IMG/VR virus record: IMGVR_UViG_3300032327_001079
Coordinates: 1-62,864 of that record
Source of the DNA: a virus
Lineage: Duplodnaviria; Caudoviricetes
Strand: one strand, 5' to 3'
DNA: 62,864 nucleotides
How positions within the stretch are numbered: position 1 is the stretch's first letter; every line of letters begins with the position of its first letter. Of the stretch, positions 34,879 through 62,309 are shown piece after piece. The position numbers were made by a program, and so were the translations under genes. Under the pieces are notes generated by a model that saw only the letters and a program-made list of their open reading frames with translations, was not told where the DNA came from and ran no database searches.

Positions 34879-34904
34879 TTATTATCTTTATTAAAATAAA
34901 TAAC

Positions 34905-35153: not shown

Positions 35154-35176
35154 CCATAAAACAAATAAATAAAAAT

Positions 35177-35809: not shown

Positions 35810-35811
35810 TA

Positions 35812-41560: not shown

Positions 41561-41562
41561 GT

Positions 41563-41593
41563 TTTGAAAACCGAAGACCTGTCATTATCTTCA
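41563..41593 (+). promoter_or_regulatory. Bacteroidota-type -33/-7 promoter for groES-groEL; spacer holds the right arm of the inverted repeat
   Basis: TTTG-N19-TATCTTCA. Confidence 0.5.
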
Positions 41594-41611
41594 ATTTAAA
41601 CAAAGTTATAT

Positions 41612-41908: not shown

Positions 41909-41909
41909 T

Positions 41910-43547: not shown

Positions 43548-43567
43548 TTTAAAATAAAATAATAGTT

Positions 43568-44494
43568 ATGAAGCAACACACTCTCTGGATTGAAAAATAT
43601 AGATCACAAACACTAGAACAATACATCGGCAACGATACGGTTAAAACCCGTATCGCCGATTGTATTACTAAAAACGATATCCCCCATTTCTTATTTGCTG
43701 GTACAGCAGGTACTGGTAAAACAACATTAGCTAAATTAATTGTTAATAACATTAAATGTGATTACCTTTACATTAATGCTAGTGATGAGAATGGAATTGA
43801 TATGATTAGAGAAAAAGTAAAGGGATTTGCCTCTACATCAACATTTCAACCTCTTAAGATTGTTATTTTAGATGAGGCTGATTTCTTAACTCAGCCAGCA
43901 CAAGCAGCGCTTCGTAATTTAATTGAAGAGTATTCAATCACAACGCGCTTTATACTTACTTGTAATTACATTGAACGTTTGATTGAACCTATTCAATCAC
44001 GCTGTGAAACTCATCTATTAACACCTCCATCTAAAGGTAATGTTGCAAAACACATTTGCACTAATATCCTTGATGTTGAAGGAATCCAATATGAAATGAT
44101 AGATGTAGCAACTATAATTAAAGAATACTATCCTGATGTTCGTTCTATTATTAAAGTATTACAACAGAATGTTGAAGTTGGTAAGTTATCTGTAACTACT
44201 TTAGATACTAATTGGATTAAACAACTAATTTTAATATTAAATAAACGCGATAAGAATGCTTGGTACCAAGTTCGCCAACTTGTAGCTGACAGCCAAGTAG
44301 ACGATTTTCAAACCGCTTATCGATATATGTTTGAGCATCTAAATGAATTTAGTTATGGAAATGATGCTAGTATTATAATATTGTTGGATGAATATTCATA
44401 TCGAGCTAATGTGTGTCCTGATAAAGAGTTAAATTTTGCAGCCTTTATAAATTCATTATTAAATATAACAACAAAAAATGTAATTAAAGGTTAA
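43568..44494 (+). CDS. Clamp loader large subunit (T4 gp44/RFC-like AAA+)
   Basis: WIEKYR, GTAGTGKTT, INASDE, ILDEAD, QSRC. Confidence 0.92.
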   Translation: MKQHTLWIEKYRSQTLEQYIGNDTVKTRIADCITKNDIPHFLFAGTAGTGKTTLAKLIVNNIKCDYLYINASDENGIDMIREKVKGFASTSTFQPLKIVILDEADFLTQPAQAALRNLIEEYSITTRFILTCNYIERLIEPIQSRCETHLLTPPSKGNVAKHICTNILDVEGIQYEMIDVATIIKEYYPDVRSIIKVLQQNVEVGKLSVTTLDTNWIKQLILILNKRDKNAWYQVRQLVADSQVDDFQTAYRYMFEHLNEFSYGNDASIIILLDEYSYRANVCPDKELNFAAFINSLLNITTKNVIKG

Positions 44495-44544
44495 ATATCG
44501 GGTGAGAAACTAGTTCTCCATATATTTATTGGAAATAATAAATT

Positions 44545-45330
44545 ATGATAGGAATATATAAAATAGTTTCTCCTTCTGGTAGAACGTATATTGGGCAGAG
44601 TACTAATATAGATAAGCGTAAGATTGATTATAATCAAAATGGTTGTTTAAAAAATCAACCTAAAATTTATAAATCAATAACTAAATATGGTTGGGAAAAT
44701 CACACTCATGAGATTATAGAAGAGTGTAATATTGAACAACTCAATGAACGTGAAACCTATTGGAAACAAGTAGAATTAGATAAAGTTAATAATGATTGGA
44801 GTAAAGTATTATTCTGTGGTTTATATGATACTGGAGGAGGACCAAAATCTAAAGAATGGAAACAAAATATTAGTAACGGACATCCTACTAAAAAATCAAT
44901 AATTCAACTTTCTTTAGAAGGAGCAAAGATAAATGAGTATATTTCAATAAACGAAGCAGCAAGGCAAACAGGTGTTAGAGTAGGAGATATAAGTGCTTGC
45001 TGTAATGGTAAACAAAAAACAGCTTATGGTTTTAAGTGGGTATTTAAAGATGAAAATTTAAGGCCGTTACTAAAACCAAGAAAAGCAAAAGTAATGACTG
45101 TAAAAGGATCTTATAATCTTTCTCAAAAAATGAAAGGAAATAATTATAAAACAGGTAAAGGAAAACCTATTGAACAATATGATTTAAATAATAATTTTAT
45201 TAGAGAGTGGATAGGAGGTGCTACTGAAGTTGAAAAGGAATTAGGATATAATCATAAAGCTATACACGAAAATTTAAAAAATAGATGTAAAACAGCATTC
45301 GGCTATATATTTAAATTTAAAAACAAATAA
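44545..45330 (+). CDS. GIY-YIG homing endonuclease with two NUMOD1 domains
   Basis: GIYKI...YIGQS...R; QLSLEG...SINEAAR...ISACC...TAYGF.W and a second repeat. Confidence 0.9.
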   Translation: MIGIYKIVSPSGRTYIGQSTNIDKRKIDYNQNGCLKNQPKIYKSITKYGWENHTHEIIEECNIEQLNERETYWKQVELDKVNNDWSKVLFCGLYDTGGGPKSKEWKQNISNGHPTKKSIIQLSLEGAKINEYISINEAARQTGVRVGDISACCNGKQKTAYGFKWVFKDENLRPLLKPRKAKVMTVKGSYNLSQKMKGNNYKTGKGKPIEQYDLNNNFIREWIGGATEVEKELGYNHKAIHENLKNRCKTAFGYIFKFKNK

Positions 45331-47829: not shown

Positions 47830-49290
47830 ATGAAAGAAGGTTATATTCCTAAGGAACAACGTAAGAAAATCTTACTACTTTGCGATGACATTAGAATGAC
47901 AAGTGGTATTTCCACTATGGCAAGAGAAATCGTTATTGGTACTGCTCATCACTACAATTGGGTGAATGTAGGAGGGGCTATTAATCACCCGGATAAAGGC
48001 AAACGATTTGATTTAAGTGGAGACACAAATCAAAATGCTGGTATAAATGATTCTAATATTTTTCTTTATCCCATTGATGGATATGGTTCCCCAGAGTTAA
48101 TTCGTCAACTAATTCAATTAGAACAACCAGATGCTATTATGTTCTTTACAGATCCAAGATATTGGGTTTGGTTATTTCAAATGGAACATGAGATTAGAAA
48201 AACAATGCCTATGATTTATCTTAACATATGGGATGATTTGCCTTACCCAATGTATAATAAATCATTTTATGAATCATGTGATACATTATTTGCTATTAGT
48301 AAACAAACAGAAAACATTAACAGATGTGTTTTAGGAGCAGAAATATCAGATGAAAAAACTATTAAATATATTCCACACGGAATAAATGAAAATATTTTCT
48401 TCCCTATTGATTCATCTCATCCTGAATATCTTGCATTACAAGATTTTAAGAAACAAGTATATGGTAATAAAGAGTATGACTTTAATCTTCTATACAATGC
48501 AAGAAACATTCGCCGTAAATCAGTTCCTGATTTGATGTTAGCTTGGAAGATATTCGCCGATACACTATCTGAAGACAAAGCTAAAAAATGTGCTTTAACA
48601 CTTCATACTCAACCTATAGATGAGAATGGAACTGATCTATATGCCGTACAGCAGATGTTATTCGGTAACGATTCTAAATACAATATCATATATTCAAATA
48701 GCCGTTACCCAGCAAACGTAATGAATTTACTTTACAATTCAGCTGATGGTGTTGCTCTAGTTTCATCTAATGAAGGTTGGGGATTATCACTTACAGAAGG
48801 AATGATGTGTGGTAAACCAATTATAGCTACCGTAACAGGCGGAATGCAAGATCAAATGCGTTTTGAAGATGAAAATGGTGAATGGATTAAATTTACCCCT
48901 GAATTCGGTTCAAATCATAGGGGTAAATATAAAAAACATGGTAAGTGGGCTTATCCCGTATTCCCAAGTAATATTAGCTTAATTGGTTCTGTTCCTACAC
49001 CTTATATATTTGATGATAGAGCCGATCCACATGATATAGCTAATCAAATAGGAGTTATGTATGATGTAAAAGTAAATTTTCCTGAGATCTACCAGGAGGA
49101 ATGCAAAGCAGCTCGTGAGTGGGTAACATCAGACGAATCAATGCAATCAGCAAAAAATATGTGTAAGAATGTAATTGATGGTATTGATGAAACATTTGAT
49201 AAATGGGAACCAAGGTATGCTTTTGAATTAATTAAAGTAGAACCACTAGAACAACCAAAACATTTTGTAAAACAAGTTATAGCACAGTAA
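47830..49290 (+). CDS. Glycosyltransferase, GT-B fold (GT4-like)
   Basis: IPHG, RNIRRK, S.NEGWGLSLTEGM.CGKPII. Confidence 0.88.
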   Translation: MKEGYIPKEQRKKILLLCDDIRMTSGISTMAREIVIGTAHHYNWVNVGGAINHPDKGKRFDLSGDTNQNAGINDSNIFLYPIDGYGSPELIRQLIQLEQPDAIMFFTDPRYWVWLFQMEHEIRKTMPMIYLNIWDDLPYPMYNKSFYESCDTLFAISKQTENINRCVLGAEISDEKTIKYIPHGINENIFFPIDSSHPEYLALQDFKKQVYGNKEYDFNLLYNARNIRRKSVPDLMLAWKIFADTLSEDKAKKCALTLHTQPIDENGTDLYAVQQMLFGNDSKYNIIYSNSRYPANVMNLLYNSADGVALVSSNEGWGLSLTEGMMCGKPIIATVTGGMQDQMRFEDENGEWIKFTPEFGSNHRGKYKKHGKWAYPVFPSNISLIGSVPTPYIFDDRADPHDIANQIGVMYDVKVNFPEIYQEECKAAREWVTSDESMQSAKNMCKNVIDGIDETFDKWEPRYAFELIKVEPLEQPKHFVKQVIAQ

Positions 49291-49291
49291 T

Positions 49292-50578
49292 ATGAAACCA
49301 TTAATAGTTATAAGCTGCCCAATTGATACATTTTCTGGCTATGGAGCTAGATCAAGAGATATTGCCTTAGCAATTATCAAATCAGACAAATATGAAGTAA
49401 AAATATTACCACAACGCTGGGGGGCAACCCCATTTGGATTCCTTCAACAAGACAATCCAGACCATAAATTAATGCTTGATTGTATTTGGAGTCAACCTCA
49501 ACTTCCTAAACAACCTGACTGTTGGATTCAAATTACAGTACCCAATGAATTCCAGCCTATAGGTAAATTTAATATTGGGATGACAGCAGGTATTGAAACT
49601 ACAATATGTGCCCCTCAATGGATTGAAGGTATGAATAGAATGAATTTAAATTTAGTCTCTTCAGAACATGCTAAGAAGGTATTTGAAACTAGTGCTTTTG
49701 AAGAAAAAAATGAACAAGGACAAATACTTAGGTCTATTAAACTAGAAAAACCAGTAGAGGTATTGTTTGAAGGAGTAAATACAGACATCTATAAAAAATT
49801 AGAATCAACAAATACATTAAATGAATTAGATATTATTAAAGAAGATTTTAATTATCTATTTGTAGGACATTGGCTACAAGGAGAAATAGGACAAGATAGA
49901 AAAGATACAGGTATGTTAGTTAAAACATTCCTAGAAACATTTAAAAATAAAAAGCAACGTCCTGGTCTTATTCTTAAAACATCTGCTGGAAACTATTCTA
50001 TAATGGATAGAGACAATATGCTAGAAAAAATTAGGCAAATTGAATCATCTGTTGATGGTGATTTACCAAGTATCTATTTAATCCATGGTGAATTAAGTGA
50101 TGATGAAGTAAATGAATTATATAATCATCCTAAAGTAAAAGCACACATATCATTTACTAAAGGGGAAGGATATGGCAGACCATTACTTGAAGCTACCCTA
50201 TCTCAAAAACCAGTAATAGCAAGTAACTATAGTGGTCATTTAGATTTTCTTGATCCTGAAATGTCGATTTTACTACCGGGAGAAATAACTCAAATACATC
50301 CGTCAGCAGCAGTACAAGATATGTTAATTCCTGAAAGTAGTTGGTTTACTATTAATTATGATAAGGCATCTGAAACTCTTGAAGATGTTTATAAAAATTA
50401 TAAGAAATATGGTGATGGAGCAAAGAGACAAGCGTATCGTTCACGTACTGAATTTAGTTTAGAGAAAATGTCTGAAAGATTAGTTAATATATTAGAAGAA
50501 AAAATACCTAAACAGGTTCAACTTAAATTACCTCAATTGAAAAAAATTGAATTACCTAAACTTAAAAAAGTAGACTAA
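49292..50578 (+). CDS. Glycosyltransferase, GT-B fold (GT4-like)
   Basis: SGYG, RK, TKGEGYGRPLLEA...KPVIA. Confidence 0.88.
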   Translation: MKPLIVISCPIDTFSGYGARSRDIALAIIKSDKYEVKILPQRWGATPFGFLQQDNPDHKLMLDCIWSQPQLPKQPDCWIQITVPNEFQPIGKFNIGMTAGIETTICAPQWIEGMNRMNLNLVSSEHAKKVFETSAFEEKNEQGQILRSIKLEKPVEVLFEGVNTDIYKKLESTNTLNELDIIKEDFNYLFVGHWLQGEIGQDRKDTGMLVKTFLETFKNKKQRPGLILKTSAGNYSIMDRDNMLEKIRQIESSVDGDLPSIYLIHGELSDDEVNELYNHPKVKAHISFTKGEGYGRPLLEATLSQKPVIASNYSGHLDFLDPEMSILLPGEITQIHPSAAVQDMLIPESSWFTINYDKASETLEDVYKNYKKYGDGAKRQAYRSRTEFSLEKMSERLVNILEEKIPKQVQLKLPQLKKIELPKLKKVD

Positions 50579-50973
50579 TGCAAGAATCATTTACAGTATG
50601 TCCTCGATGTGAAGGAAATGCATGTCACGAGATATCAAATGATAAACTTACTGTTTGGAGTTGTTTTGGATGTGGCTTCACATCCAATTCAACTTTAATA
50701 GAAGATAAATTAGAAGAAGTTGAGTCTGTAATTCCTCAACTATATAAAGATCTTCGATTTAAAGACGATAAAGGTTATTACTGGTATCCTAATAGCGTAA
50801 TGCTAGAAGATAAATCATTAGTATTTGCTGACGGTAAGACATCAAAAGAATGGAAGTGGGCCGGTGTGTTATCTAAAGATAGTAAAGCAGATATGACAAC
50901 GGTAAAATATTTTGAAGAAAAAGAATTTATGGAAGCTCTTGACTATATAGGCTTCTTTGAAAAACAAAAATAA
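50578..50973 (+). CDS. Zinc-ribbon hypothetical protein
   Basis: CPRC...C...CFGCG. Confidence 0.65.
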   Translation: MQESFTVCPRCEGNACHEISNDKLTVWSCFGCGFTSNSTLIEDKLEEVESVIPQLYKDLRFKDDKGYYWYPNSVMLEDKSLVFADGKTSKEWKWAGVLSKDSKADMTTVKYFEEKEFMEALDYIGFFEKQK

Positions 50974-50977
50974 TATT

Positions 50978-51592
50978 ATGCCTTCAATTAGTTATGCAAT
51001 TACAGCATGTAATGAACATGCTGAGTTAGAACGTTTATTAGACCATTTAGAAGACTGGATTAGAGAAGAAGATGAAGTAGTAATTCAATTAGATATTACT
51101 GCTACTGAAGAAGTAAAAGCATTATGTTTTGATTATATGCGTAGTAATTGGAATGTTATTGAGTTTGGACTAAATAAAGACTTCGCATCCTTTAAAAATA
51201 ATCTAAAAAACCACTGTACTAAAGACTATATATTTCAAATAGATGCAGATGAGAATCTTTCTCAAGATTTAATACTTAATCTCCCTGAAATATTAGAACT
51301 TAATCCTGAAATTGAATTATTTGCTGTTCCTAGAATTAATATAGTAGAAGGATTAACTCAAGAACATATTCAAAAATGGGGATGGAGTGTTAATAAAAAT
51401 GGATGGGTTAACTATCCCGATTATCAAACACGTATATTTAAAAATATACCTGAAATAAAATGGATAAATAAAGTTCATGAGCGTTTAGTTGGAGCTAAAA
51501 TAATAGTTTCATTACCTGAAGGATATGATTTAATTCATTCTAAGACAATAGAAAGACAAGAAAAACAAAACGAATATTATAATACATTATGA
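50978..51592 (+). CDS. Glycosyltransferase family 2
   Basis: ISYAITACNE, DFA.FKN, IDADE, PD.Q.RI, VHE; start moved from 50957 to ATG 50978. Confidence 0.85.
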   Translation: MPSISYAITACNEHAELERLLDHLEDWIREEDEVVIQLDITATEEVKALCFDYMRSNWNVIEFGLNKDFASFKNNLKNHCTKDYIFQIDADENLSQDLILNLPEILELNPEIELFAVPRINIVEGLTQEHIQKWGWSVNKNGWVNYPDYQTRIFKNIPEIKWINKVHERLVGAKIIVSLPEGYDLIHSKTIERQEKQNEYYNTL

Positions 51593-52401
51593 AAATAAAA
51601 GTAAATCATTTTGATTTAGAAGTATTCAAAAAAAAATTATCTCATCTTAAAGATATAAATTTTTCCCTGTTTATAGATGCCACTCCAGAAACACAAAATG
51701 AACTATCCGAAGTTAATATATTAGTACTTCAAGAACCAAATGAATATTTCGGATTACATGACTGGGCTATCCATAACAAACATTTATTTTCAATTATATT
51801 AACATGGGATGATAAAGTAATTAATAACTGTGATAATGCTATCTTTTTACCTTTTGGGCATACTTGGTTTAAACCTGATCAATATCAAAGACACCACGAT
51901 AAAAAATTTCAAATTTCTCATTTAAGAGGTAATTTATTAAAAACATATGGTCAATCTTTAAGACATGAATTATTAGATAGAAAAAATGAAATTACAATAC
52001 CTACTAACTTTTATGATATTTTTGGAGATAGACATAATATTGAAGATGCTAGAATAGGTAAAGAAACTGTATTTAGTAATTCAATGTTTGGTGTAGCTAT
52101 AGAAAATACATCTCATAATGGTTATTTTACTGAAAAAATATTGGATTGTCTCCTATTAAAAACAATCCCAGTTTATTGGGGTTGTTCTTCAATAACAAAT
52201 TTCTTTAGGCAAGATGGTATTATTACATTTAATAATATTGATGATTTAATTGTTAAAGTTAATAAATTAGATGAATCCTATTACAATGAACGTAAAGATA
52301 TTATAGAGGAAAATTATAATTTAGCTCTACAATTTGTTGATTATGAGCAAAATATTGTTAATACTATAACAGAAATATTCAAACTAAATAATATAATTTA
52401 A
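51589..52401 (+). CDS. GT10 (fucosyltransferase)-like glycosyltransferase
   Basis: F.VAIEN...GYFTEKI.DC....TIPVYWG. Confidence 0.75.
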   Translation: MKIKVNHFDLEVFKKKLSHLKDINFSLFIDATPETQNELSEVNILVLQEPNEYFGLHDWAIHNKHLFSIILTWDDKVINNCDNAIFLPFGHTWFKPDQYQRHHDKKFQISHLRGNLLKTYGQSLRHELLDRKNEITIPTNFYDIFGDRHNIEDARIGKETVFSNSMFGVAIENTSHNGYFTEKILDCLLLKTIPVYWGCSSITNFFRQDGIITFNNIDDLIVKVNKLDESYYNERKDIIEENYNLALQFVDYEQNIVNTITEIFKLNNII

Positions 52402-53714
52402 TGCAAGAAATACTTAAACTAATAGATGAATACATCCAGAAAAAACATTCTGAAAAAACATGGACAGCAGGTAAAGACTGGGTTCAATATGCAGGTCCAT
52501 ACTTTGATTCACAGGAGTATGTTGCTGCTGTTAGATCACTATTAGGTGAATGGCTAGTGTTAGGTGCTGATGCAATTAAATTTGAATCTAAGTTCCCTAA
52601 GTTATTCGGTAAAGAATATGGCTTATTAACCAATAGTGGATCAAGTGCTAATCTATTAATGATGGCTGCTATGACCTCTAAACGCGGTTATAATCTGCCT
52701 AAAGGAACAAAAGTAATTACTCCAATAGCTGGTTTTCCAACTACTGTAGCCCCAATTATCCAATTAGGATTCACCCCTATATTCATTGATATCGAGCTTG
52801 AAACATTAAACCTTAATCTAGATCAGGTTGAACAAGTATGTATTGATAATCCGGATGTTAAAATTATTACATTTGCTCACGTATTAGGTAATCCACCTAA
52901 CATGAATCGTCTAATGGAAATAGTTAAAAAATATAAACTAATACTGTTAGAAGACTGCTGCGATGCTTTAGGTTCTACATTTGAAGGTAAACCATTAGGA
53001 TCATTTGGTGAAATGGCTAGTTGCTCATTCTACCCAGCACACCACATGACAATGGGTGAAGGTGGATTCGTAGCAATGAATAATCAAAATACAGAACGTA
53101 TTGTTCGTAGTTTTAGAGAGTGGGGTAGGGGATGTTATTGTGTTGGTAAACAAAATCTATTAGAGAATGGAGCATGTAAGTGTCGTTTTAATAATTGGTT
53201 ACCATCACTTCCAAATGAAATATTTGATCACAAATATGTTTATGAGGAAATAGGATATAACGTTAAACCAATCGAACTACAAGCATCAATTGGTTTAGTT
53301 CAAATGGAAAAATTAAAGGAAATAGGAATTAAACGCAAAGAAAATTATAAAAATTTATTTGCTGCATTTAGTAAATACAAACAATATTTCCACTTACATG
53401 AAGCACAACCTGGAGCGGATGTTGATTGGTTTGCCTTTCCAATAACAGTTAAAGATGGAACCTCATTCAAACGTTCTGATATATGCCAGTTCTTAGAAGT
53501 ACATAAAATACAAACACGCCCCTACTTTGCAGGTAATATTATGCTACAACCAGCATATACTCATTTAATGGATCCTAAAGAAGTGATTGAAAAATATCCT
53601 GTAGCTAGAAAAGTTACAACAGACACATTTTTCTTAGGTACATCACCTGTAATTAATAAGGAAAAAACAGATTATATAGAAACAATTTTAGATAAGTTTA
53701 TATCTACTCTATAA
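52401..53714 (+). CDS. rfbH: NDP-4-keto-6-deoxyhexose 3-dehydrase (DdhC/RfbH, E1; DegT family)
   Basis: NSGSSANL, EDCCDALG, SFYPAHHMTMGEGG (His in place of the PLP Lys), WGR.CYC...C Fe-S loop, DHKY...IGYN. Confidence 0.88.
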   Translation: MQEILKLIDEYIQKKHSEKTWTAGKDWVQYAGPYFDSQEYVAAVRSLLGEWLVLGADAIKFESKFPKLFGKEYGLLTNSGSSANLLMMAAMTSKRGYNLPKGTKVITPIAGFPTTVAPIIQLGFTPIFIDIELETLNLNLDQVEQVCIDNPDVKIITFAHVLGNPPNMNRLMEIVKKYKLILLEDCCDALGSTFEGKPLGSFGEMASCSFYPAHHMTMGEGGFVAMNNQNTERIVRSFREWGRGCYCVGKQNLLENGACKCRFNNWLPSLPNEIFDHKYVYEEIGYNVKPIELQASIGLVQMEKLKEIGIKRKENYKNLFAAFSKYKQYFHLHEAQPGADVDWFAFPITVKDGTSFKRSDICQFLEVHKIQTRPYFAGNIMLQPAYTHLMDPKEVIEKYPVARKVTTDTFFLGTSPVINKEKTDYIETILDKFISTL

Positions 53715-54547
53715 TGAAACCATTTGTAATATACACTTATGATTATAGCCCGGGGGTAGGTGGTATTAAAGTAATGCACAAATTATGTGACATGCTTAAT
53801 AAAAATAAGTTTGAGGCTTATTTAATGCCAATCCATATTAGAGATGATTTCTATACTTGTGCAGACTATAATACTCCTCTAATTACTCAGGAAGTATATA
53901 ATAATATAGAAAATGCTATTGTTATTTATCCTGAAGGTATTCATAATAATCCATTAGGTTCCAAAAACGTAGTTAGATGGATATTAGGTCCTTCTCATCA
54001 ACATGATGCTGAAACATACTCTAAAGAGGATTTAATATATTGGTATATGGATTATTATTATACTGATTATTTAGGTCAAAAGGAAAATATACTTCATATT
54101 CCTGAATTTCATAGTGATATATTCAAAGATATGAATTATAACAGAATAGGTAGTTGTTATACTATTAGAAAAGCTAACCCAACAACATTAATTCATCCCT
54201 CTGATTCTATATTTATATCTTTTGAAGCAGCAGGTAATTTAACAAGATTAGCCGAATTATTTAACAAAACTAAAAAATTCTATTGTTATGATACTTATAC
54301 TTTCCTATCAGTTCAAGCGGCAATGTGTGGTTGTATTAGTATAGTAGTACCTGATCCTAATGTAACTAAAGAACAATGGTTAGTTGGGTCACGATTAAGT
54401 AAGTATGGAATGGCATATGGGGAAGAAGATATTCCTAGAGCATTAGAAACATTACCTTTATTGTTTGAGGAAATAAACAAAATGAATTTGGAGATGGACG
54501 AACAGGTTATTAAATTTATAGAACACTGTCAAAATTATTTTAAATGA
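53714..54547 (+). CDS. WavQ-like / putative glycosyltransferase
   Basis: GGIKVMHKLC, IYPE...NPL...VVRW.L, YDTYTFLS..AAMCGC. Confidence 0.6.
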   Translation: MKPFVIYTYDYSPGVGGIKVMHKLCDMLNKNKFEAYLMPIHIRDDFYTCADYNTPLITQEVYNNIENAIVIYPEGIHNNPLGSKNVVRWILGPSHQHDAETYSKEDLIYWYMDYYYTDYLGQKENILHIPEFHSDIFKDMNYNRIGSCYTIRKANPTTLIHPSDSIFISFEAAGNLTRLAELFNKTKKFYCYDTYTFLSVQAAMCGCISIVVPDPNVTKEQWLVGSRLSKYGMAYGEEDIPRALETLPLLFEEINKMNLEMDEQVIKFIEHCQNYFK

Positions 54548-55491
54548 AAGTAGTATATATAACAGGATGTTTAGGATTTATAGGATCTTACATCACTAGA
54601 GAATGTCTTAAAAAAGGATGGTATGTTAAAGGTATAGATAAAATGACATACGCTGCTAATGAGGAATTATTATGGGAGTTTAATGATTATGAAAATTTCT
54701 CATTTGTTAATTCTGATATTAACGATTTGAAATTCTTATATGAATGTGACTATATTATCAATACAGCTGCCGAAACACACGTTGGTAATTCAATAGCTAA
54801 CAGTGATGAATTTATTCATTCTAATATTAATGGTGTTCACCATTTATTAGAATTAATTAAAAATTATAGACAAGAAACCTCTAAAACACCAATACTACTA
54901 CATTTTAGCACGGATGAAGTGTATGGTGATATAGATAAAGGCACCCATACAGAAACAGATCTACTTAAACCATCAAACCCATACTCAGCAACTAAAGCAG
55001 CAGCTGATATGCTAGTTTTAGCTTGGGGTAGAACTTATAATTTACCTTATATTATAGTTAGACCAACTAACAATTATGGTATGGGACAATATGTTGAAAA
55101 ATTAATTCCTAAAACTTGTAAATATCTAATGTTAGGGAGAAAAATACCACTTCATAATAATGGTACTCCAATTCGCAATTGGCTACATGCTCAAGATACA
55201 GCTAATGCTGTTGTTAAGATTATTGAAACAGGAGTGCAAAATGAAATATATAATATAGCAGGTGGATTTGAGCAAAGTAATTATATTACCGTTAAGAAGG
55301 TAATTGAAGGATATAATGGTAATGATGATATAGAAGCATATCTTGATTTATCTTATTCTAGAATAGGACAAGATGTTCGATATGCTTTAGATGATTCTAA
55401 ATTAAGAGCACTAGGATGGGAACCTAAAAAAGTATTTGATAATGAATTAAAAAATATAGTACAATATTATAAAAATAAATTTATATGGTAA
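54544..55491 (+). CDS. rmlB: NDP-glucose 4,6-dehydratase (RmlB/RfbB-like)
   Basis: TGCLGFIG, DK.TYA, AAETHV, STDEVYG, PYSATK, NNYG..Q..EKLIP. Confidence 0.88.
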   Translation: MKVVYITGCLGFIGSYITRECLKKGWYVKGIDKMTYAANEELLWEFNDYENFSFVNSDINDLKFLYECDYIINTAAETHVGNSIANSDEFIHSNINGVHHLLELIKNYRQETSKTPILLHFSTDEVYGDIDKGTHTETDLLKPSNPYSATKAAADMLVLAWGRTYNLPYIIVRPTNNYGMGQYVEKLIPKTCKYLMLGRKIPLHNNGTPIRNWLHAQDTANAVVKIIETGVQNEIYNIAGGFEQSNYITVKKVIEGYNGNDDIEAYLDLSYSRIGQDVRYALDDSKLRALGWEPKKVFDNELKNIVQYYKNKFIW

Positions 55492-56042
55492 AAAAAGCAC
55501 TTATTATTACTTGGGAAAAATTTCAAGATCATGAATTAATTTATCCCTATTATAGTCTAAAAGAAAATGGCTATGAAGTAACATTGATGGCCAATCGAGT
55601 AGGCAAAATTTGGGGATCATTAGGTACTCATATGCCTTGTGATGTTGAAACTTCTATATTTGAAGATGAAATAATAAGACAACAATATCTAAAAGAATAT
55701 GAAATCCTATTAATACCCGGTGGAGTTAAAGCACTTGAAAAAGTAAGACAAGAACAGGGTGTACTTAAGTTTATTCAGGAATGGAATACATCTAATAAAA
55801 CAATATTCTCAGTCTGTAATGGAGCCCAACTACTAATTTCAGCTAAAATATTACAAGGTAGAACTATATCTGGTTATTACTCAATTAATACTGATATTGA
55901 AAATGCAGGAGCTATTTATAATAGAGGTCCAGTAGTAGTAGATAGTAATATTATTTCTTGTCCTCACTATGATTTTATGGCTGAATGGATGAGAACAGCA
56001 TTCCAAGTACATAACGAAAGAATAAAAAATGTCCAATCATAA
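55485..56042 (+). CDS. DJ-1/PfpI family protein
   Basis: FQD.E, IPGG, nucleophile elbow SVCNG, AGA...VVVD.NIIS. Confidence 0.85.
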   Translation: MVKKALIITWEKFQDHELIYPYYSLKENGYEVTLMANRVGKIWGSLGTHMPCDVETSIFEDEIIRQQYLKEYEILLIPGGVKALEKVRQEQGVLKFIQEWNTSNKTIFSVCNGAQLLISAKILQGRTISGYYSINTDIENAGAIYNRGPVVVDSNIISCPHYDFMAEWMRTAFQVHNERIKNVQS

Positions 56043-56712
56043 TATTAATATTGTTAAAAAACCTTGGGGATACGAATACCTAGCCTATGAAAACGAAAAT
56101 GTAGGCTTGTGGTTTCTCTACATAGCTCCTGATCAAAGTACCTCAATGCACTGTCATCCTAAGAAAACAACAGGATTAGTGCTATTAGATGGTGAAGCTG
56201 AAATATCATTTTTAGCTGATAAACGTCAATTAAAATCATTAGATAAAGTAATGATTAGAAGAGGTTTATTTCATTCTACAAAAGCAGCATCTGATAAAGG
56301 GGCATTTATATTTGAAATCGAAACACCAGTAGATAAACAAGATTTAGTTAGGTTAAACGATCAATATGGACGTGCTTCTAAACCATATGAGGATGATACA
56401 TTTGAGGAAGCTAAAACTAATGACTGTTTATGGATACAAGAACCAGAATTAGGTAAATGTATAATATATTCATTTGCTGACTGTGTTTTAAAAATTGAAA
56501 CAATAGATGATATTAAAATAATCAACAATAAAGAAGATAATGATTTAATTATATTTCTTAAAGGTGGAATGGTACGTAATATAGATGGTATATCTCATTG
56601 TGTTACTATTCCTGGTGATGTTGGATTTGCTAATATTATTAAGCAAGTATCAAAACAATTAGATGGAGTAATTCCTGGAACAATCATAATGACAATTATT
56701 AAAAATGGCTAA
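56029..56712 (+). CDS. Cupin protein (mannose-6-phosphate isomerase type II-like)
   Basis: KPWGYE, SMHCH..K, H, EIETP...DLVRL.D.YGR. Confidence 0.75.
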   Translation: MSNHNINIVKKPWGYEYLAYENENVGLWFLYIAPDQSTSMHCHPKKTTGLVLLDGEAEISFLADKRQLKSLDKVMIRRGLFHSTKAASDKGAFIFEIETPVDKQDLVRLNDQYGRASKPYEDDTFEEAKTNDCLWIQEPELGKCIIYSFADCVLKIETIDDIKIINNKEDNDLIIFLKGGMVRNIDGISHCVTIPGDVGFANIIKQVSKQLDGVIPGTIIMTIIKNG

Positions 56713-57091
56713 TTTTTACCCTCCTGGATATGAAGAACAATTAACTGTAATTGCTGTCGATTTTGACGGTGTATTACATAATGCTGATAAAGGTTGGGGT
56801 GATGGTACCTGTTATGGAGACCCCTTACCTGGATCTATAAATGCTATTAAGGAATTGTCTAAAAAATATAAAATTGTTATCTTTACAGCTAAAGCAAAAC
56901 CAGATCGTCCATTAGTAAATGGTAAAACAGGAACAGAATTAGTACAAGAGTGGTTTAAAAGGTATAATATTTTAGAGTACATTGATAGTATTACAAGTGA
57001 GAAACCAAGAGCAGAATTATACATTGATGATAATGGATATCGCTTTGAAAATTGGAACGATACATTAAACTTTATAGAAAAACTACTATGA
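56705..57091 (+). CDS. HAD-superfamily phosphatase
   Basis: VDFDGV, FTAK, KP.A..YIDD. Confidence 0.8.
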   Translation: MANFYPPGYEEQLTVIAVDFDGVLHNADKGWGDGTCYGDPLPGSINAIKELSKKYKIVIFTAKAKPDRPLVNGKTGTELVQEWFKRYNILEYIDSITSEKPRAELYIDDNGYRFENWNDTLNFIEKLL

Positions 57092-58821
57092 TAAAAGTTT
57101 CAGATTATATATTTGACTTTTTACAATCTAAAGGAATAGACACTATATTCTCAGTATCTGGGGGAGCCGCAGCTCATTTACTTAATTCAGTTAAGGAAAA
57201 AAATTTTAAATATATTTGTAACTATCACGAACAAGCTTGTGCTATGGCAGCTGAAGGATACGCTCGTATAGCCAACAAACCAGCTTGTGTTTTAGTTACT
57301 AATGGACCTGGATCTACTAATACTCTTACAGGTGTAGTTGGAGCCTATCAAGATTCAATCCCAATGATCATAATTTCAGGACAGGTACCAGTAGATCAAT
57401 CATTAGGTAGTTTAAAAGATATTACATTAAGGCAATTAGGAGTACAAGAATGTGATATAATTAGTATGGTAAAACCAATTACTAAATATGCTATTCAAAT
57501 AACTAATCCTAATAATATAGTATCATGCCTTGAAAAAGCTTACCAAGAAGCAACTACTGGTAGAAAGGGTCCTGTTTGGTTAGATATTCCTTTAGACGTC
57601 CAGAATGCAAAAATAGACCCAAAAGAATATTTTGTAGATGACATTATAAATATTATACTCAAATCTAAAAGACCAATAATAGTAACAGGAAACGGAATTC
57701 ATTTATCCAATTCAGAAAAAGAATTTTTAGAGATAAAAGATAAATTACAAATACCTATAGTATCAACTTGGACTTCTAAAGATTTATTAAATCATAATGA
57801 TCCTTTATTTGTGGGAAATTTTGGATTATTGGGTGAAAGAGCAGGTAATTTTGCAATTCAAAATGCCGATTTATTATTAATATTAGGGAGTAGAATGTCT
57901 ATTCCTAATGTAGGATATCAACACCAATCTTTTTCTCCTAATTCTATTAAAATAATGGTTGATATAGATGAAAATGAATTAAAAAAACCAACTATTAAAA
58001 TAGATTATCCTATTAATAGAGATTTAAAATTTTTTCTATCTGTACTTAAAACAAGGCTAAAAAATCAAAACATACCTGATTGGACTAATTGGATTGACAA
58101 AACCCAATCATGGAAGAAAAAATACCCAGTATTTCAACCTGAATATAAAATAAATGATGGGAAAATAAATTCATTTTATTTTATGGAAGTATTATCTAAT
58201 AAATTAACAGATAATAATATTGTAGTAACTGATATGGGTACAAGTTATACATGTACAATGCAATCACTACAAATGAATGGTAAAGCTAGATTATTTACAT
58301 CTAGTGCTTGTTGTTCAATGGGATTTGGGTTACCTGGAGCTATTGGAGCTTACTTTGCAGATCCAAGTAAAGATATTTTATTAATAGCAGGAGATGGAGG
58401 TATACAAATGAACATTCAAGAATTACAGACAGTAATTCATAATAAAATACCTCTAAAAATATTCTTACTTAATAATAATGGTTACCTTGCTATTTCCTTA
58501 ATGCAAGATAACCTATTTAAAAGCAACTATATAGGCTCAAATCCAGATAGTGGAATTAGTAACCCTAATTTTGTTAAATTAGCTGATGCATATGGGTTTA
58601 AAACATACATCTTTAATAATAATATTGAACTAGAAAAAGGAATAGATGAAGTATTAAGTACAAAGGGACCCGTATTATGTGAAATTAAAATGATTGAAAA
58701 TCAATTATTAATTCCTCGTGTTCAATCATCTAAAGATAAAAATGGTAAAATTATATCCAATTCATTAGAAAATATGTTTCCTTATTTAAATGATGAAGAA
58801 ATGAAAGAAATTATGTTATGA
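57088..58821 (+). CDS. Thiamine-pyrophosphate-dependent enzyme (acetolactate synthase / YerE-like)
   Basis: HEQ...MAAEGY, TNGPG.TN, GPVWLDIP.DVQ, SMGFGLP, GDGG.QMNIQE...NN; start at ATGA overlap 57088. Confidence 0.9.
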   Translation: MIKVSDYIFDFLQSKGIDTIFSVSGGAAAHLLNSVKEKNFKYICNYHEQACAMAAEGYARIANKPACVLVTNGPGSTNTLTGVVGAYQDSIPMIIISGQVPVDQSLGSLKDITLRQLGVQECDIISMVKPITKYAIQITNPNNIVSCLEKAYQEATTGRKGPVWLDIPLDVQNAKIDPKEYFVDDIINIILKSKRPIIVTGNGIHLSNSEKEFLEIKDKLQIPIVSTWTSKDLLNHNDPLFVGNFGLLGERAGNFAIQNADLLLILGSRMSIPNVGYQHQSFSPNSIKIMVDIDENELKKPTIKIDYPINRDLKFFLSVLKTRLKNQNIPDWTNWIDKTQSWKKKYPVFQPEYKINDGKINSFYFMEVLSNKLTDNNIVVTDMGTSYTCTMQSLQMNGKARLFTSSACCSMGFGLPGAIGAYFADPSKDILLIAGDGGIQMNIQELQTVIHNKIPLKIFLLNNNGYLAISLMQDNLFKSNYIGSNPDSGISNPNFVKLADAYGFKTYIFNNNIELEKGIDEVLSTKGPVLCEIKMIENQLLIPRVQSSKDKNGKIISNSLENMFPYLNDEEMKEIML

Positions 58822-59582
58822 AAATTCTAATTACAGGAACTAATGGTTATATAGGTAAATCATTATATAATGCTTTAAAAGATAAGTATGAAGTAACTAC
58901 TATTACTAGACAAGACTTTGATTTAACAGCAATTCAACCAATGATTGAATTTTTTAAAGATAAATATTTTGATGTTGTTTTACATTGTGCTATAGTAGGA
59001 GGAAGTAGATTAAAAGAAGATAATTGGGAAGTAATGGATATTAATTTGTGCATGTATTATAACTTAATACAATGCCAAGCACATTATAATAAATTAATTA
59101 ATTTTGGTTCTGGGGCTGAAACATATGCATCTAGTACTCCTTATGGTTTGAGTAAATTAGTTATTAAAAACTCAATAGCCAATATACCTAATTTTTATAA
59201 TTTAAGAGTATTTGGAGTGTTTGATGAAAATGAATTAGATACTCGTTTTATAAAAGCTAATATTAAAAGATATATTAATAAAGAACCAATAATTATTTAT
59301 CAAGATAAATATATGGATTTTATTTATATGCTTGATTTAGTTAAAATAGTAGAATATTATATTAATAATAAAGGACCTAAAGAAATAAATTGTAATTATA
59401 ATAAAACTTTTACTTTAAAAGAAACAGCAAATGTAATTAATAATTTAAATAATTATAAAGTAGAAATAAAAATAGAACAAGAAAACTTTGGAGACAACTA
59501 TATAGATAATTATCTTCATCTAGAAATTGATTTTATTGGATTAAAACAAGGAATTATAGAAACTTATAAAAAACTAAAATGA
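58818..59582 (+). CDS. NAD-dependent epimerase/reductase (extended SDR)
   Basis: TGTNGYIG, GSGAE, YGLSK. Confidence 0.85.
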   Translation: MKILITGTNGYIGKSLYNALKDKYEVTTITRQDFDLTAIQPMIEFFKDKYFDVVLHCAIVGGSRLKEDNWEVMDINLCMYYNLIQCQAHYNKLINFGSGAETYASSTPYGLSKLVIKNSIANIPNFYNLRVFGVFDENELDTRFIKANIKRYINKEPIIIYQDKYMDFIYMLDLVKIVEYYINNKGPKEINCNYNKTFTLKETANVINNLNNYKVEIKIEQENFGDNYIDNYLHLEIDFIGLKQGIIETYKKLK

Positions 59583-60502
59583 ACGTAACTATCATATATC
59601 ATATAATGCCCTGGGAGATAGATTATGCTCTACTAGCATTCACCCAATTAAAAAAATCTAAATACTACATACCAGAAGAAGTAAATATCACAATTAAATC
59701 AGCTCTTAATTTATCAAATTATTTAATCGATTGGAATAAAAGTAAACTACCTAAAGAATATTTTATTGAAAAATATAAAACATTATCTATTTTACTTAAA
59801 GATTATAATCATGATAGTTTTATATATGACGGAGATGAATTATGGGGTCATCTAGATTTGCAACGAGATGCTATATCATCTGAAACCAATTACTATATTA
59901 GTACATGTCCTGACATGTATTTTAGTGAGTATTTATTAAGCTACATGATTCAAGCAGCAATGTCAATTTCTAATAAGTACTTTATATTAACACCCCAAAT
60001 CTGCAGAATGTGGGATGAAAGCTGGGAAGTATTAATTCATCCTCAATTTGCTGTTGGACCTCACTATGGATGGGAAAAAACAACAGACATATTTGATGTA
60101 GATTATTATTTACATACATCTGAAGAAGAAATAAATATAACTCCTACTGATCAGCTTAAGTGGGCGGGGTGGTTTGATTTATATAATAAAGAGTTTTATG
60201 AGGATTTAGTTCAAATTCCTAATGAATGGAAAGGATATGGAGGGTTAGATAGTTACGGATTAAACATATGTGCCTATGCAAAACACATAGGGTTAGATTT
60301 TCAACAATATCGTTTAGATGGTCAGATAATATTTGAATATTCTGTTGGTCCTTTACGAACAGATGAAGTACATGGTTTTTCTAATTATTATAAAAATCTA
60401 TTAGTTAGAAAAGATGTCTCTGAACAAAGAGAGGAATTTAATAAAAATTTACCTACATTTATAGAGAAAAAAATAAAAGAACTACATGATAGATACAAAT
60501 AG
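59579..60502 (+). CDS. Putative glycosyltransferase (GT-A-like)
   Basis: CPD.YF, GW F.L...K, GYGGLD motifs; operon context. Confidence 0.5.
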   Translation: MNVTIIYHIMPWEIDYALLAFTQLKKSKYYIPEEVNITIKSALNLSNYLIDWNKSKLPKEYFIEKYKTLSILLKDYNHDSFIYDGDELWGHLDLQRDAISSETNYYISTCPDMYFSEYLLSYMIQAAMSISNKYFILTPQICRMWDESWEVLIHPQFAVGPHYGWEKTTDIFDVDYYLHTSEEEINITPTDQLKWAGWFDLYNKEFYEDLVQIPNEWKGYGGLDSYGLNICAYAKHIGLDFQQYRLDGQIIFEYSVGPLRTDEVHGFSNYYKNLLVRKDVSEQREEFNKNLPTFIEKKIKELHDRYK

Positions 60503-61160
60503 ATTAGAAAAATATTGTGATCCCTCTAGCTCTATATTTGTGAAAACACAAAGATGGGAATTAATGAATCATTTGATTGATAAATATAAATTAATAAATT
60601 ATCTAGAAATTGGAGTTAATGATGGTCTTTGTATAAGACAAATTAATGCTGAACATAAAGATGGAGTTGATCCACATCCTGGATCTGAAGTAGGTGGGAT
60701 GTATGTTCCTGAAATTAATTATCCCGTCACATCTGATAGTTTTTTTGAATTAATAAAAGACCATGATATTAAATATGATATGATCTTTATTGATGGATTA
60801 CATCATGCTAACCAAGTAGATAAAGACATCCAAAATGCACTAAACCATATTGTTGATGGGGGTTTTATAATAATGCATGATTGTAATCCACTTGAATATC
60901 ACATGCAGTTAGTTCCAAGAGTAACAGGATTATGGAATGGTGATGTTTGGAAATCAATAGTTAAATTAAGATGTACTGAGCCTGAATTAGAAGTAATGGT
61001 TATAGATGCTGATTGGGGAGTTGGATTAATAAGAAAAGGTAAACAAAAACTATATACTAAAGCATCTTTAGAAGAATGTTTAACATGGGATTATTTTGAT
61101 ATAAACCGAAATGAACTTATTAATTTAATAACAGTAGAAGAATTTTATAAAAAAATTTAA
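60486..61160 (+). CDS. Class I SAM-dependent methyltransferase (Methyltransf_24-like)
   Basis: YLEIGV..G, GVDP, DMIFIDGLH, G.IIMHD. Confidence 0.85.
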   Translation: MIDTNRLEKYCDPSSSIFVKTQRWELMNHLIDKYKLINYLEIGVNDGLCIRQINAEHKDGVDPHPGSEVGGMYVPEINYPVTSDSFFELIKDHDIKYDMIFIDGLHHANQVDKDIQNALNHIVDGGFIIMHDCNPLEYHMQLVPRVTGLWNGDVWKSIVKLRCTEPELEVMVIDADWGVGLIRKGKQKLYTKASLEECLTWDYFDINRNELINLITVEEFYKKI

Positions 61161-62309
61161 ATGGAAAGTAAAATATCACTATTAGCAGCTTTAAAAAATA
61201 ATTTAGACTATAATAAACATTTCTATAAAACTACTAGAGCAATATATCCTGAAATAGAAATATGCTTTAGTAGTTATAGTAGTACCGATGGTACCCATGA
61301 GTGGTTAGATTCATTAAATGACCCATTTACTAAAATATTCCATTCAGATAAATATGGTAATTTTTCTGATAATTTTAATAAGGCCGCTTCAATGGCAACT
61401 AAAGAATATATTGTGTTCGTTCACAACGATATTGTATTAGCCCCTGGATTTATTGAAAATTTAGAAAAATATTGTAACCCGGATACAGTAATATCTTACA
61501 CTACAATCGAACCACCTATATTTGCTGGACACGAACGCCCAGGTAAAATTATTAAGGACTTTAGCGCTGACTTAGAAACATTTAATATAAATGGATTTTA
61601 TCAATTTGCAGCTGAAACTGTAGAAAAATATAAAGATAAAATTGAGCCGGGTGTTGTGTTCTTTATGTGTATGCCTAAAGACAAATATCTTGAAATTGGA
61701 GGTTTAGATAATTTATACAATCCAATGTTCTGTGAAGATGATGACTTAATATTAAGATGGAAATTAGCAGAATTAAATATAATTACTTCATTAGATGCTA
61801 TTACTTATCATTTTGTATCGAAAACCTCTCGTTTCTCCGAAGAATATCAACAACATACTCAACAAATAGAACTACAATCAAATCGTAATTTTATTAGAAA
61901 GTGGGGTAATAAAGATTTTAAAACAAAATATGATATAGGATATATTATTAAAAATTGTAACACTCAACTTATCCCAACATTAGAATTATTTGCCTCTACA
62001 ATTTATGTTGATTGTCCTTATCAAGATTACATTGAAGCAGAACAACCCAATACTAAGTTTGATTTAAATAAACGTATTAAAAACATAAATGAATCTAAAA
62101 CTAATCAAATATTAGTTGAATTTGATGCTACACAATTAAATCAAAATAATTTTCAACTATTACAACAATTACCTCAAATTATACTAGAATCTGAAGGATT
62201 AGGGATATTTGAATTAGACGTATTTAAAATAGACATATCCGGAATGGATCGTTTAGAAAAACATTTAATCGAAATAAATTCCCCATATTACCAATCTCAG
62301 CTTTTGTAA
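61161..62309 (+). CDS. Glycosyltransferase family 2
   Basis: STDGT, HNDIV, EPP, GGLD..Y...CEDDD...R, YHF. Confidence 0.85.
   Translation: MESKISLLAALKNNLDYNKHFYKTTRAIYPEIEICFSSYSSTDGTHEWLDSLNDPFTKIFHSDKYGNFSDNFNKAASMATKEYIVFVHNDIVLAPGFIENLEKYCNPDTVISYTTIEPPIFAGHERPGKIIKDFSADLETFNINGFYQFAAETVEKYKDKIEPGVVFFMCMPKDKYLEIGGLDNLYNPMFCEDDDLILRWKLAELNIITSLDAITYHFVSKTSRFSEEYQQHTQQIELQSNRNFIRKWGNKDFKTKYDIGYIIKNCNTQLIPTLELFASTIYVDCPYQDYIEAEQPNTKFDLNKRIKNINESKTNQILVEFDATQLNQNNFQLLQQLPQIILESEGLGIFELDVFKIDISGMDRLEKHLIEINSPYYQSQLL

Follow-up and report, generated by a model that had tools for sequence, protein, structure and literature searches.

What does an enzyme that resembles acetolactate synthase do in a phage, in the midst of genes for sugar-nucleotide synthesis? 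This question is raised by the IMG/VR virus record IMGVR_UViG_3300032327_001079, a contig of 62,864 bp that is 37% complete by CheckV and that was analyzed here over its whole length (hereafter the window). A first-pass annotation had described an operon in which a 4,6-dehydratase, a DdhC/RfbH-type 3-dehydrase, a thiamine diphosphate (ThDP)-dependent enzyme and a short-chain dehydrogenase/reductase (SDR) make a yersiniose-like sugar, the ThDP enzyme acting as a sugar C-C ligase. The four genes lie where they had been placed, on the + strand and with overlapping stops and starts; four genes in between had been overlooked, which encode a 277-amino-acid (aa) protein, a DJ-1/PfpI family protein, a bicupin and a phosphatase of the haloacid dehalogenase (HAD) superfamily. 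Judged from these genes and their relatives, the block is probably a phage route to a C4-acyl-branched 3,6-dideoxyhexose, which would then be transferred to a target. It comprises the following genes (NDP, nucleoside diphosphate; dTDP, deoxythymidine diphosphate; PMP, pyridoxamine 5′-phosphate; GT, glycosyltransferase):

52401..53714, + strand: E1/RfbH/DdhC-type PMP- and [2Fe-2S]-dependent NDP-4-keto-6-deoxyhexose 3-dehydrase, 437 aa (NF011936, 3bcx, motifs)
53714..54547, + strand: 277-aa protein, viral family, non-core (weak GT-B lead only)
54544..55491, + strand: RmlB-type NDP-glucose 4,6-dehydratase (dTDP-glucose type), 315 aa (TIGR01181, PDB matches)
55485..56042, + strand: DJ-1/PfpI family protein (PF01965, 8.1e-33; adjoins the bicupin gene in the related viral loci L001-L003)
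56029..56712, + strand: bicupin, 227 aa (weak PF01050/PF07883 matches; structure model)
56705..57091, + strand: minimal HAD-superfamily phosphatase, 128 aa (phrog_1238, 3.5e-13; DFDGV...T61...K100...DD108-109)
57088..58821, + strand: predicted YerE/JanthE-like ThDP carboligase, 577 aa (three ThDP domains, 8rph match, tree, residues)
58818..59582, + strand: short extended-SDR reductase, 254 aa, candidate YerF-like enzyme or C4 ketoreductase (PF01370, 2e-21)

Separation of the ThDP enzyme from acetohydroxyacid synthases

The open reading frame of the ThDP enzyme spans 57052-58821 and its homologues begin at the ATG at 57088, which is the likely start and yields a protein of 577 aa. All three ThDP domains (PF02776, PF00205 and PF02775) are present, and the catalytic Glu of the HEQ motif and the ThDP motif GDGGIQMNIQE are retained. 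Acetohydroxyacid synthase (AHAS; IlvB/IlvG/IlvI with IlvN/IlvH) has the same three-domain fold at about 30% identity. However, the best AHAS model, TIGR00118, reaches 367.8 bits against a cut-off of 538.35, and the remaining AHAS models listed stay under their cut-offs as well. The ranking of PDB entries is led by JanthE (8rph) with 382.2 bits over the full length, C-terminal tail included, followed by 5ahk with 258.2 and E. coli AHAS I with 248.5 bits. A profile of 27 other members of the sugar clade, built without the window and the five viral loci that group with it (L001-L005), gives the same order (8rph 597.4, 5ahk 504.6 and best AHAS 443.9 bits). We take 5ahk to be PpYerE, an identification for which our literature search found no paper and which is not confirmed; on this assumption, the window enzyme lies in the part of the family around JanthE and not in that around PpYerE.

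JanthE from Janthinobacterium sp. HH01 (8rph, also 8rpi and 8rpj) is described as a YerE-like aldehyde-ketone carboligase, for which keto acids are the donors and ketones the acceptors (PMC12188165, PMC12247030). It has in common with the window enzyme the segments LRxxGVQ, (S/T)R(M/L)xIPxxGY and LFKS(N/D)Y(I/V)G and the C-terminal tail. Five hot-spot residues are named in PMC12188165; if the PDB numbering is offset by one, three of them are identical in the window (V121, P293 and Y297), whereas K567 is replaced by Arg and Y268 by Leu. The ThDP motif is the canonical GDGG in the window but CDG in JanthE.

A residue comparison covered 63 AHAS rows and 37 sugar-clade rows. The tryptophan that we take to be functional in the AHAS acceptor site occurs in all 63 AHAS rows and in none of the 37 others, with Met472 in its place in the window. 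The RFDDR motif, whose residues presumably have functional roles in AHAS too, is changed in the window from Phe to Met270 and from Asp to Ile272, and Arg115 and Gly118 are found in all 37 sugar-clade rows. A tblastn search with seeds detected no homologue of ilvN, ilvC, NeuB, HpaI or PanB in the window (best E 0.052). By these sequence features, the enzyme is not an acetolactate synthase and most likely a sugar-branching enzyme, as the first-pass annotation had held. Its domains, its closeness to JanthE and its sugar-gene context support YerE-like membership; a ketone, NDP-4-keto-3,6-dideoxyhexose, would be its acceptor.

We further compared the gene with 23 viral (L001-L023) and 80 bacterial loci (L024-L103), which were labelled by their neighbour genes. 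The bacterial loci are split into 14 top loci (L024-L037) and 66 lower-scoring AHAS-like ones (L038-L103); the set holds no locus from Yersinia, Pectobacterium, Janthinobacterium, Pseudomonas protegens or Mycobacterium. Genes for ilvN and/or ilvC are present in 59/66 lower-scoring loci versus 0/37 in L001-L037, and a Pfam scan downstream of the ThDP gene found the acetolactate synthase small subunit and/or ketol-acid reductoisomerase in 9 of 15 sampled AHAS-like loci. Conversely, a DegT-family gene neighbours the ThDP gene in 20 of the 23 viral and 9 of the 14 top bacterial loci and in none of the 66 AHAS-like ones. Among the viral loci, 19 have a 4,6-dehydratase homologue and 17 an SDR homologue inside the fetched flank, the latter in many cases directly downstream of the ThDP gene.

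The phylogeny that had been proposed as a check of the sugar-ligase claim was run as a quick IQ-TREE tree of 59 rows, made up of the window, 22 sequences from viral and 14 from top bacterial loci, and one in three of the 64 full-length AHAS-like sequences (L016, L082 and L098 were left out as partial). A branch with an SH-aLRT support of 100 and a length of about 1.9 splits 22 AHAS-side rows, 18 of which are linked to ilvN/ilvC, from 37 sugar-cluster rows. The window enzyme stands apart from bona fide AHAS, among 36 other sugar-cluster enzymes, so that the check did not refute the claim. It groups with L001-L005 (support 100), to which it is 54-93% identical, within a 19-row clade (support 100) that includes bacterial E1-linked enzymes. 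The DegT-family neighbours carry a His at the catalytic position in 29/29 cases. Four cysteines are present in 20 of them (E1/SpnQ-type), three in L009 and none in eight ColD-type neighbours (L006, L007, L010, L011, L013, L018, L019 and L021). The pairing of two mechanistically different C3-dehydratases with one ThDP clade would be expected if both served the same need for an NDP-4-keto-3,6-dideoxy sugar as acceptor, and it is in line with the scheme published in PMC9306805.

Homologues are abundant in metagenomes: out of 7,998 homologues scored, each of the best 120 has an identity of 73% or more; these lie on contigs of up to 197 kb and in many cases bear the source name 'acetolactate synthase'. 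Among phage isolates, no close homologue was present in the 59 matching records of 50,697, the best being 33% identical and most looking like bacterial ilvB. The family matches the unannotated PHROG phrog_11199 with 371.5 bits.

The related loci differ in their further content. In L006, L007, L010, L011, L018, L019 and L021, the ThDP gene is accompanied by a Cys-less, His-type ColD-like dehydratase, an SDR, a 4,6-dehydratase and a PanB homologue, the last also found in L015. In all, eight viral loci have a PanB homologue in the flank, and in the two of them that were annotated, L006 and L010, it adjoins the ThDP gene. PanB may supply a hydroxymethylated 2-oxo acid as donor. L013 and L015 are GVMAG contigs, that is, giant-virus metagenome-assembled genomes (MAGs), with ThDP relatives of 35-37% identity and adjoining sugar genes. 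In a second phage group (L017, L020, L022 and L023), E1, ThDP enzyme and SDR are present and the DJ-1, bicupin and HAD genes absent. The bacterial loci L024-L036 follow the order nucleotidyltransferase, CDP (cytidine diphosphate)-type dehydratase, E1, ThDP enzyme, NeuB-family enzyme or HpaI aldolase, SDR and GT2, often with GtrA; the slot adjoining the ThDP gene holds a NeuB-family gene in L024, L028, L029 and L036 and an HpcH/HpaI aldolase gene in L025, L027 and L035, and L036 has a NeuB-cupin fusion. From these clusters one would predict that Clostridia, Bacteroidales, Arcobacteraceae and Acidobacteriaceae make long-branched sugars that have not been described.

Accompanying genes of sugar-nucleotide synthesis

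The assignment of 52401-53714 to the E1/RfbH/DdhC-type 3-dehydrases, made in the first-pass annotation, holds at the level of sequence. The protein scores 453.2 bits with NF011936, above the cut-off of 423, and matches the Yersinia pseudotuberculosis E1 (3bcx) with 334.7 bits over residues 2-434, compared to 171.3 bits for ColD. The FYPAHH motif is retained (H214/H215), with H214 aligned to the Lys of the 3bb8 variant, and the cysteines C187-X57-C245-X-C247-X11-C259 align with those of E1. A His in place of Lys and four Cys around PMP are given as hallmarks of E1 and SpnQ, and ColD as lacking the cluster, in PMC8987622.

For the 4,6-dehydratase (54544-55491), the Yersinia model did not carry over: the annotation had drawn on DdhB, which is of the CDP type, whereas the window enzyme is of the RmlB (dTDP) type. 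It scores 303.4 bits with TIGR01181 (cut-off 365.1) versus 67.6 bits with the CDP model TIGR02622 (cut-off 278.45), and all ten PDB matches at E<=1e-30 are dTDP-glucose 4,6-dehydratases. Since the enzyme is RmlB-like, the sugar nucleotide is more likely dTDP or UDP (uridine diphosphate) than CDP. The 277-aa protein encoded between the two genes has no match in Pfam, NCBIfam or PHROG and no homologue in the related loci; an Atlas lead of 0.84 points weakly to GT-B-type clusters that resemble the T4 glucosyltransferase. The E1 and dehydratase genes abut in L002, and in L001 the gap between them is filled by a gene other than that of the 277-aa protein.

The SDR gene overlaps the ThDP gene by 4 nt. 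Its product has an Epimerase/RmlD-like fold with the motifs GxxGxxG (GTNGYIG) and YGLSK and is 29-36% identical to the SDRs of the viral loci and of L025; by sequence it is a candidate for a YerF-like enzyme acting on the branch carbonyl, or else for a C4 ketoreductase.

The bicupin and HAD genes accompany the ThDP gene in L001-L005, and the DJ-1 gene does so in L001-L003. This set is absent from the other viral groups, in which only a HAD homologue recurs, in L014. The bicupin was modelled with a predicted local distance difference test (pLDDT) score of 90.6 and has His41, His43 and His82 in its N-terminal barrel. Its Foldseek neighbours are the bicupins YxaG, BacB, AerE and OxdC. The top tie in VIA is between the cupin epimerase domain of CapF (Z 14.2, rmsd 2.1, 107 residues) and PMI (Z 14.1), with KdgF, BacB, AerE and oxalate decarboxylase as further structural neighbours, so that the ties extend over many cupin functions. 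From the model, an NDP-4-keto-sugar epimerase/isomerase and a keto-acid-handling enzyme are both candidates. The bicupin has 1583 relatives, which are mostly viral; a sequence search of the PDB gave one match for it (E 0.011) and nothing useful for the HAD protein.

The HAD motifs are invariant in 6/6 aligned copies. In L014 (positions 826-6587), the genes run in the order SIS isomerase, GHMP kinase, small HAD, nucleotidyltransferase, ThDP enzyme, SDR and E1-type dehydrase. The small HAD protein of this locus is 37% identical to that of the window and takes the GmhB position of the nucleotide-heptose route, between GHMP kinase and nucleotidyltransferase and after the SIS isomerase; L014 looks like a nucleotide-heptose route that feeds the same branching chemistry.

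The proposed pathway and its alternatives

In the pathway that we propose, the host would give NDP-glucose, most likely dTDP-glucose, which the RmlB-type dehydratase (54544-55491) would convert to NDP-4-keto-6-deoxyglucose. The E1-type PMP/[2Fe-2S] dehydrase (52401-53714) would take off the C3 hydroxyl; electrons for its re-reduction would come from ferredoxin or flavodoxin systems of the host or from a reductase encoded in the unsequenced part of the genome. The ThDP enzyme (57088-58821) would decarboxylate an alpha-keto acid and join the acyl anion to the C4 keto group, resulting in a tertiary alcohol, and the short SDR (58818-59582) would play the part of YerF and reduce the carbonyl of the branch. 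Together with the other soluble glycosyltransferases, the adjacent GT-A enzyme would assemble the sugar-containing glycan. The sequences show the family assignments, the separation from AHAS and the conserved linkage to C3-dehydratases; we infer the order of the steps, the nucleotide, the electron donor, the target and the keto-acid donor, which may be pyruvate, leading to a C2 branch, or a longer or functionalised acid.

PMC9306805 gives a scheme of YerE, YerF and deoxy-keto-sugar genes for the sugars yersiniose, erwiniose, caryophyllose and gastriose. The clusters of ErwE/ErwF/ErwI of Pectobacterium atrosepticum, MMAR_2331-2333 of Mycobacterium marinum and MyGE of M. gastri combine a YerE-like enzyme with a reductase and deoxy-keto-sugar genes, as the window does, and the gene content of the window supports the logic of the yersiniose pathway. 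Compared to the yersiniose A pathway of Yersinia pseudotuberculosis (DdhA-D/YerE/YerF), which is bacterial, the window version is viral and adds the DJ-1, bicupin and HAD genes. The clusters for long-branch sugars have aldolases, and the nearest bacterial relatives of the window have an aldolase or NeuB-family gene beside the ThDP gene. In contrast, the window has no aldolase; its donor-supply module, if there is any, would be of another kind (DJ-1, bicupin and HAD).

Several observations weigh against the proposed pathway. The last Cys spacing of the window E1 is X11, whereas we take it to be X7 in the Yersinia E1. A DdhA-type nucleotidyltransferase (PF00483) was not found in the window, which represents about 37% of the genome, or in the records of five relatives, one of them 80% complete at 144 kb; the phage probably draws on host NDP-glucose. 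Likewise, no DdhD/E3-like Fer2 or NAD_binding_1 domain was found in the window or in the records of four relatives, the 80%-complete one included, which agrees, within the available sequence, with the earlier remark that DdhD is missing. Of the scanned bacterial loci with a linked E1, L027 is the only one in which an FNR-like gene stands beside E1. The SDR, a short protein, is only weakly related to CapF/WbjC-type and RmlD-type reductases. Since this is so, and since the top structural tie of the bicupin includes the CapF epimerase domain, SDR and cupin could act on the ring by C3/C5 epimerisation and C4 reduction rather than on the branch. The branched-sugar scheme gives the products of the DJ-1, bicupin and HAD genes no part to play. 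The tree holds no characterised YerE, ErwE or MMAR_2332 sequence, its anchor being the PDB ranking only. JanthE itself has no known physiological substrate or pathway (PMC12188165), whereas the phage enzyme stands in a clear sugar context.

With regard to the electron donor, SpnQ offers a precedent, as this spinosyn TDP-sugar 3-dehydrase is of the E1 type, with His and [2Fe-2S], acts on a dTDP-sugar and works with general ferredoxin or flavodoxin reductase pairs in place of a dedicated E3 (PMC8987622). It is likened to the window E1 by description and not by sequence, and it differs in its 2,6-dideoxy substrate and in belonging to an actinomycete antibiotic pathway. According to the same source, SpnQ has aminotransferase activity without a reductase, and no E3 was found here, so that one might ask whether the window E1 is a C4 aminotransferase with a 4-amino-4,6-dideoxyhexose as product. 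We regard this as very improbable: if a 4-amino sugar were made, the conserved ThDP enzyme would have no keto group to act on, E1 itself is inactive in this way under similar conditions (PMC8987622), and the retention of four Fe-S cysteines in 20/29 neighbours, and three in one more, argues that electron transfer is used. It is also improbable, though somewhat less so, that the block makes an unbranched 3,6-dideoxyhexose, with E1 followed by a cupin epimerase and the SDR as C4 ketoreductase (abequose-, paratose- or ascarylose-like, or a split CapF), while the ThDP enzyme catalyzes an unrelated reaction. The weak match of the SDR to the CapF/WbjC reductase family NF047837 (1.4e-5) and the CapF tie of the bicupin are in line with such a product. 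However, the linkage of the ThDP gene to a His-type C3-dehydratase recurs in very divergent clusters (20/23 viral and 9/14 bacterial), the SDR homologue in 17/23 viral flanks, often directly after the ThDP gene, mirrors yerE-yerF, and the ThDP gene is translationally coupled in the operon. There is scarcely any room left for a true AHAS, i.e. an auxiliary metabolic gene for branched-chain amino acid synthesis in the infected cell. The top Pfam and NCBIfam names, the source names of the metagenome homologues and the kept catalytic Glu and ThDP motif would fit it, but the protein falls under every AHAS cut-off, is separated from the ilvN/ilvC-linked enzymes by the long branch with support 100 and is missing the AHAS Trp and RFDDR residues, and its gene lies amid sugar genes, with no small subunit or ilvC in the window.

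The alternative that stays closest to the proposed pathway retains its logic with a branch other than C2: the DJ-1/bicupin/HAD trio would make or release an alpha-keto acid that is longer or functionalised, e.g. by removing the phosphate from a phosphorylated 2-oxo or ulosonic acid, and a new long-branched sugar akin to erwiniose, caryophyllose or gastriose would result. We consider this possible but unlikely. The branch may not be C2, since JanthE prefers C4-C5 donors, turning over 2-oxobutyrate and 2-oxovalerate better than pyruvate (PMC12247030 Table 1); pyruvate is also rejected by ErwE (PMC9306805). The nearest bacterial clusters have a donor-supply enzyme (NeuB-family or HpcH/HpaI) adjoining the ThDP gene, and PanB recurs in the eight viral loci, beside the ThDP gene in L006 and L010; all three make 2-oxo acids, like ErwI for ErwE. 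The window bicupin and HAD genes fill this donor-supply slot and are kept in L001-L005 (DJ-1 only in L001-L003), keto-acid enzymes (BacB, AerE, KdgF and OxdC) are among the proteins to which the bicupin is structurally close, and the fusion in L036 joins NeuB to a cupin. Against this, the window has no aldolase, NeuB or PanB, the bicupin matches tie across many cupin functions, the GmhB position of the L014 HAD gene points to sugar-phosphate rather than keto-acid chemistry, and L017, L020, L022 and L023 have E1, ThDP enzyme and SDR without the trio. Of the label 'yersiniose-like', the pathway logic stands, whereas the branch need not be the pyruvate-derived C2 unit, given the preference of JanthE for longer donors and the three conserved extra genes at the place of donor-supply enzymes in bacterial clusters.

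The glycan island, its phage and the wider context

The block is part of a 16-gene glycan island at 47830-62309, directly before a head-maturation gene. The genes look like one operon, because the intergenic gaps range only from +1 to -17 nt. Scans for promoters and terminators were not above shuffles (99 vs 116.7 and 5 vs 5.6), and PADLOC returned a single 18-bit match on 12 island proteins. The remaining island genes are:

47830..49290, + strand: GT4-type (GT-B) glycosyltransferase (PF00534, 4e-10; phrog_2170 glycosyltransferase)
49292..50578, + strand: second GT4-type glycosyltransferase (PF00534, 6e-7; phrog_2170; L001/L002 copies 73-77% identical)
50578..50973, + strand: 131-aa protein with N-terminal four-Cys zinc-ribbon-like motif (weak Zn-ribbon Pfam matches; kept in L001 and L002)
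50957..51592, + strand: GT2 glycosyltransferase (PF00535, 4.1e-9)
51589..52401, + strand: GT10-like (fucosyltransferase-like) glycosyltransferase (PF00852, 1e-7; in L002, not in L001)
59579..60502, + strand: GT-A-fold glycosyltransferase without a Pfam family, 307 aa (structure model; kept in L001 and L002)
60486..61160, + strand: class I S-adenosylmethionine (SAM)-dependent methyltransferase (Methyltransf_24; PF13578, 1.1e-10)
61161..62309, + strand: GT2 glycosyltransferase (PF00535, 1.8e-11)

L001, L002 and the window have the core of sugar-synthesis genes in common but differ in their glycosyltransferases. Directly behind the SDR gene, the 307-aa GT-A protein was modelled with a pLDDT of 95.2, has LARGE1, chondroitin polymerase, GalNAc-T and hyaluronan synthase as top Foldseek neighbours and 323 representatives at E<=0.001, and is, from its model, a candidate transferase for the new sugar. 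The 131-aa protein (50578-50973) has two CxxC knuckles near its N-terminus and may be a zinc ribbon; a role as a small redox protein is more speculative.

None of the island proteins has a convincing membrane segment (maximum KD19 1.61), and no flippase, polymerase or polyprenyl-phosphate transferase is encoded in the island, which favours cytoplasmic glycosylation of a soluble target. GtrA lies beside the GT2 gene in several of the scanned clusters of bacterial relatives. As a first guess, held tentatively, the glycan might be attached to virion proteins; the host envelope is a possible but less likely target, and DNA an improbable one. Phage-borne sets of glycosyltransferases that act in the cytoplasm, as is predicted here, serve the glycosylation of mycobacteriophage virions and of phage DNA, and precedents for the targets considered are cited in PMC12619734. 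Those systems are not known to use sugars other than common host-made ones, whereas the phage of the window is predicted to encode also the synthesis of a rare branched sugar.

The window has a GC content of about 31%, and its long open reading frames lie nearly all on the + strand. Pfam matches comprise a tail sheath, a gp19-like tube, a T4 baseplate protein, gp32, RecA/UvsX-like and DnaB proteins, a class II ribonucleotide reductase, PolB, a clamp loader, a GroEL-like chaperonin, Hsp20 and proteins of 7-deazaguanine synthesis; a gene for a ClpP-like prohead protease is located at the right end. The tail sheath is 45% identical to that of its nearest isolate, Flavobacterium phage vB_FspM_immuto, and PolB at most 33% identical to that of any phage record. 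The window is thus part of the genome of an aquatic phage; its gene content marks this phage as a T4-like myovirus, and the lineage has been sampled poorly. The tail sheath hints weakly at Flavobacterium phages, the host being a guess, and the prohead-protease search gave no clue to it. No tRNA genes were found in the window.

Outside the island, positions 30189-36225 carry a QueD-like PTPS gene, QueC and GTP cyclohydrolase I for 7-deazaguanine synthesis, interspersed with unassigned open reading frames and adjoined by a phosphoribosyltransferase-like gene; this suggests a modified guanine in the phage DNA. At 40979-45330, genes for Hsp20 and the GroEL-like chaperonin precede those for a clamp-loader ATPase and for a homing endonuclease that is NUMOD/HmuI-like.

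Within a limited literature collection, we found no paper that describes a YerE-like pathway in a virus. The proposed pathway would be the first viral ThDP-dependent C-branching of a sugar in the literature searched, and it appears to be common in metagenomes. A broader picture, which we hold only with considerable doubt, is that widespread aquatic T4-like phages make their own carbon-branched 3,6-dideoxy sugar and that other phages and giant-virus MAGs have analogous clusters; the DJ-1/bicupin/HAD module would provide the donor for a sugar whose structure is not yet known, and six to seven soluble glycosyltransferases would build a virion glycan with it. If this is true, viral 'acetolactate synthases' in general would be sugar-branching enzymes and not amino-acid genes, and a systematic mis-annotation of viral and metagenome sequences under this name would be corrected. 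The same mis-annotation may be present in a study of Micromonas viruses, in which viral acetolactate synthase is grouped with amino-acid synthesis (PMC5454428 Table 2). The orphan enzyme JanthE would gain a physiological role, and the JanthE-like enzymes used in biocatalysis a natural pathway context. The finding further raises the question of whether phages decorate their virion, the host surface or their DNA with rare sugars, and how this would affect host range and defence.

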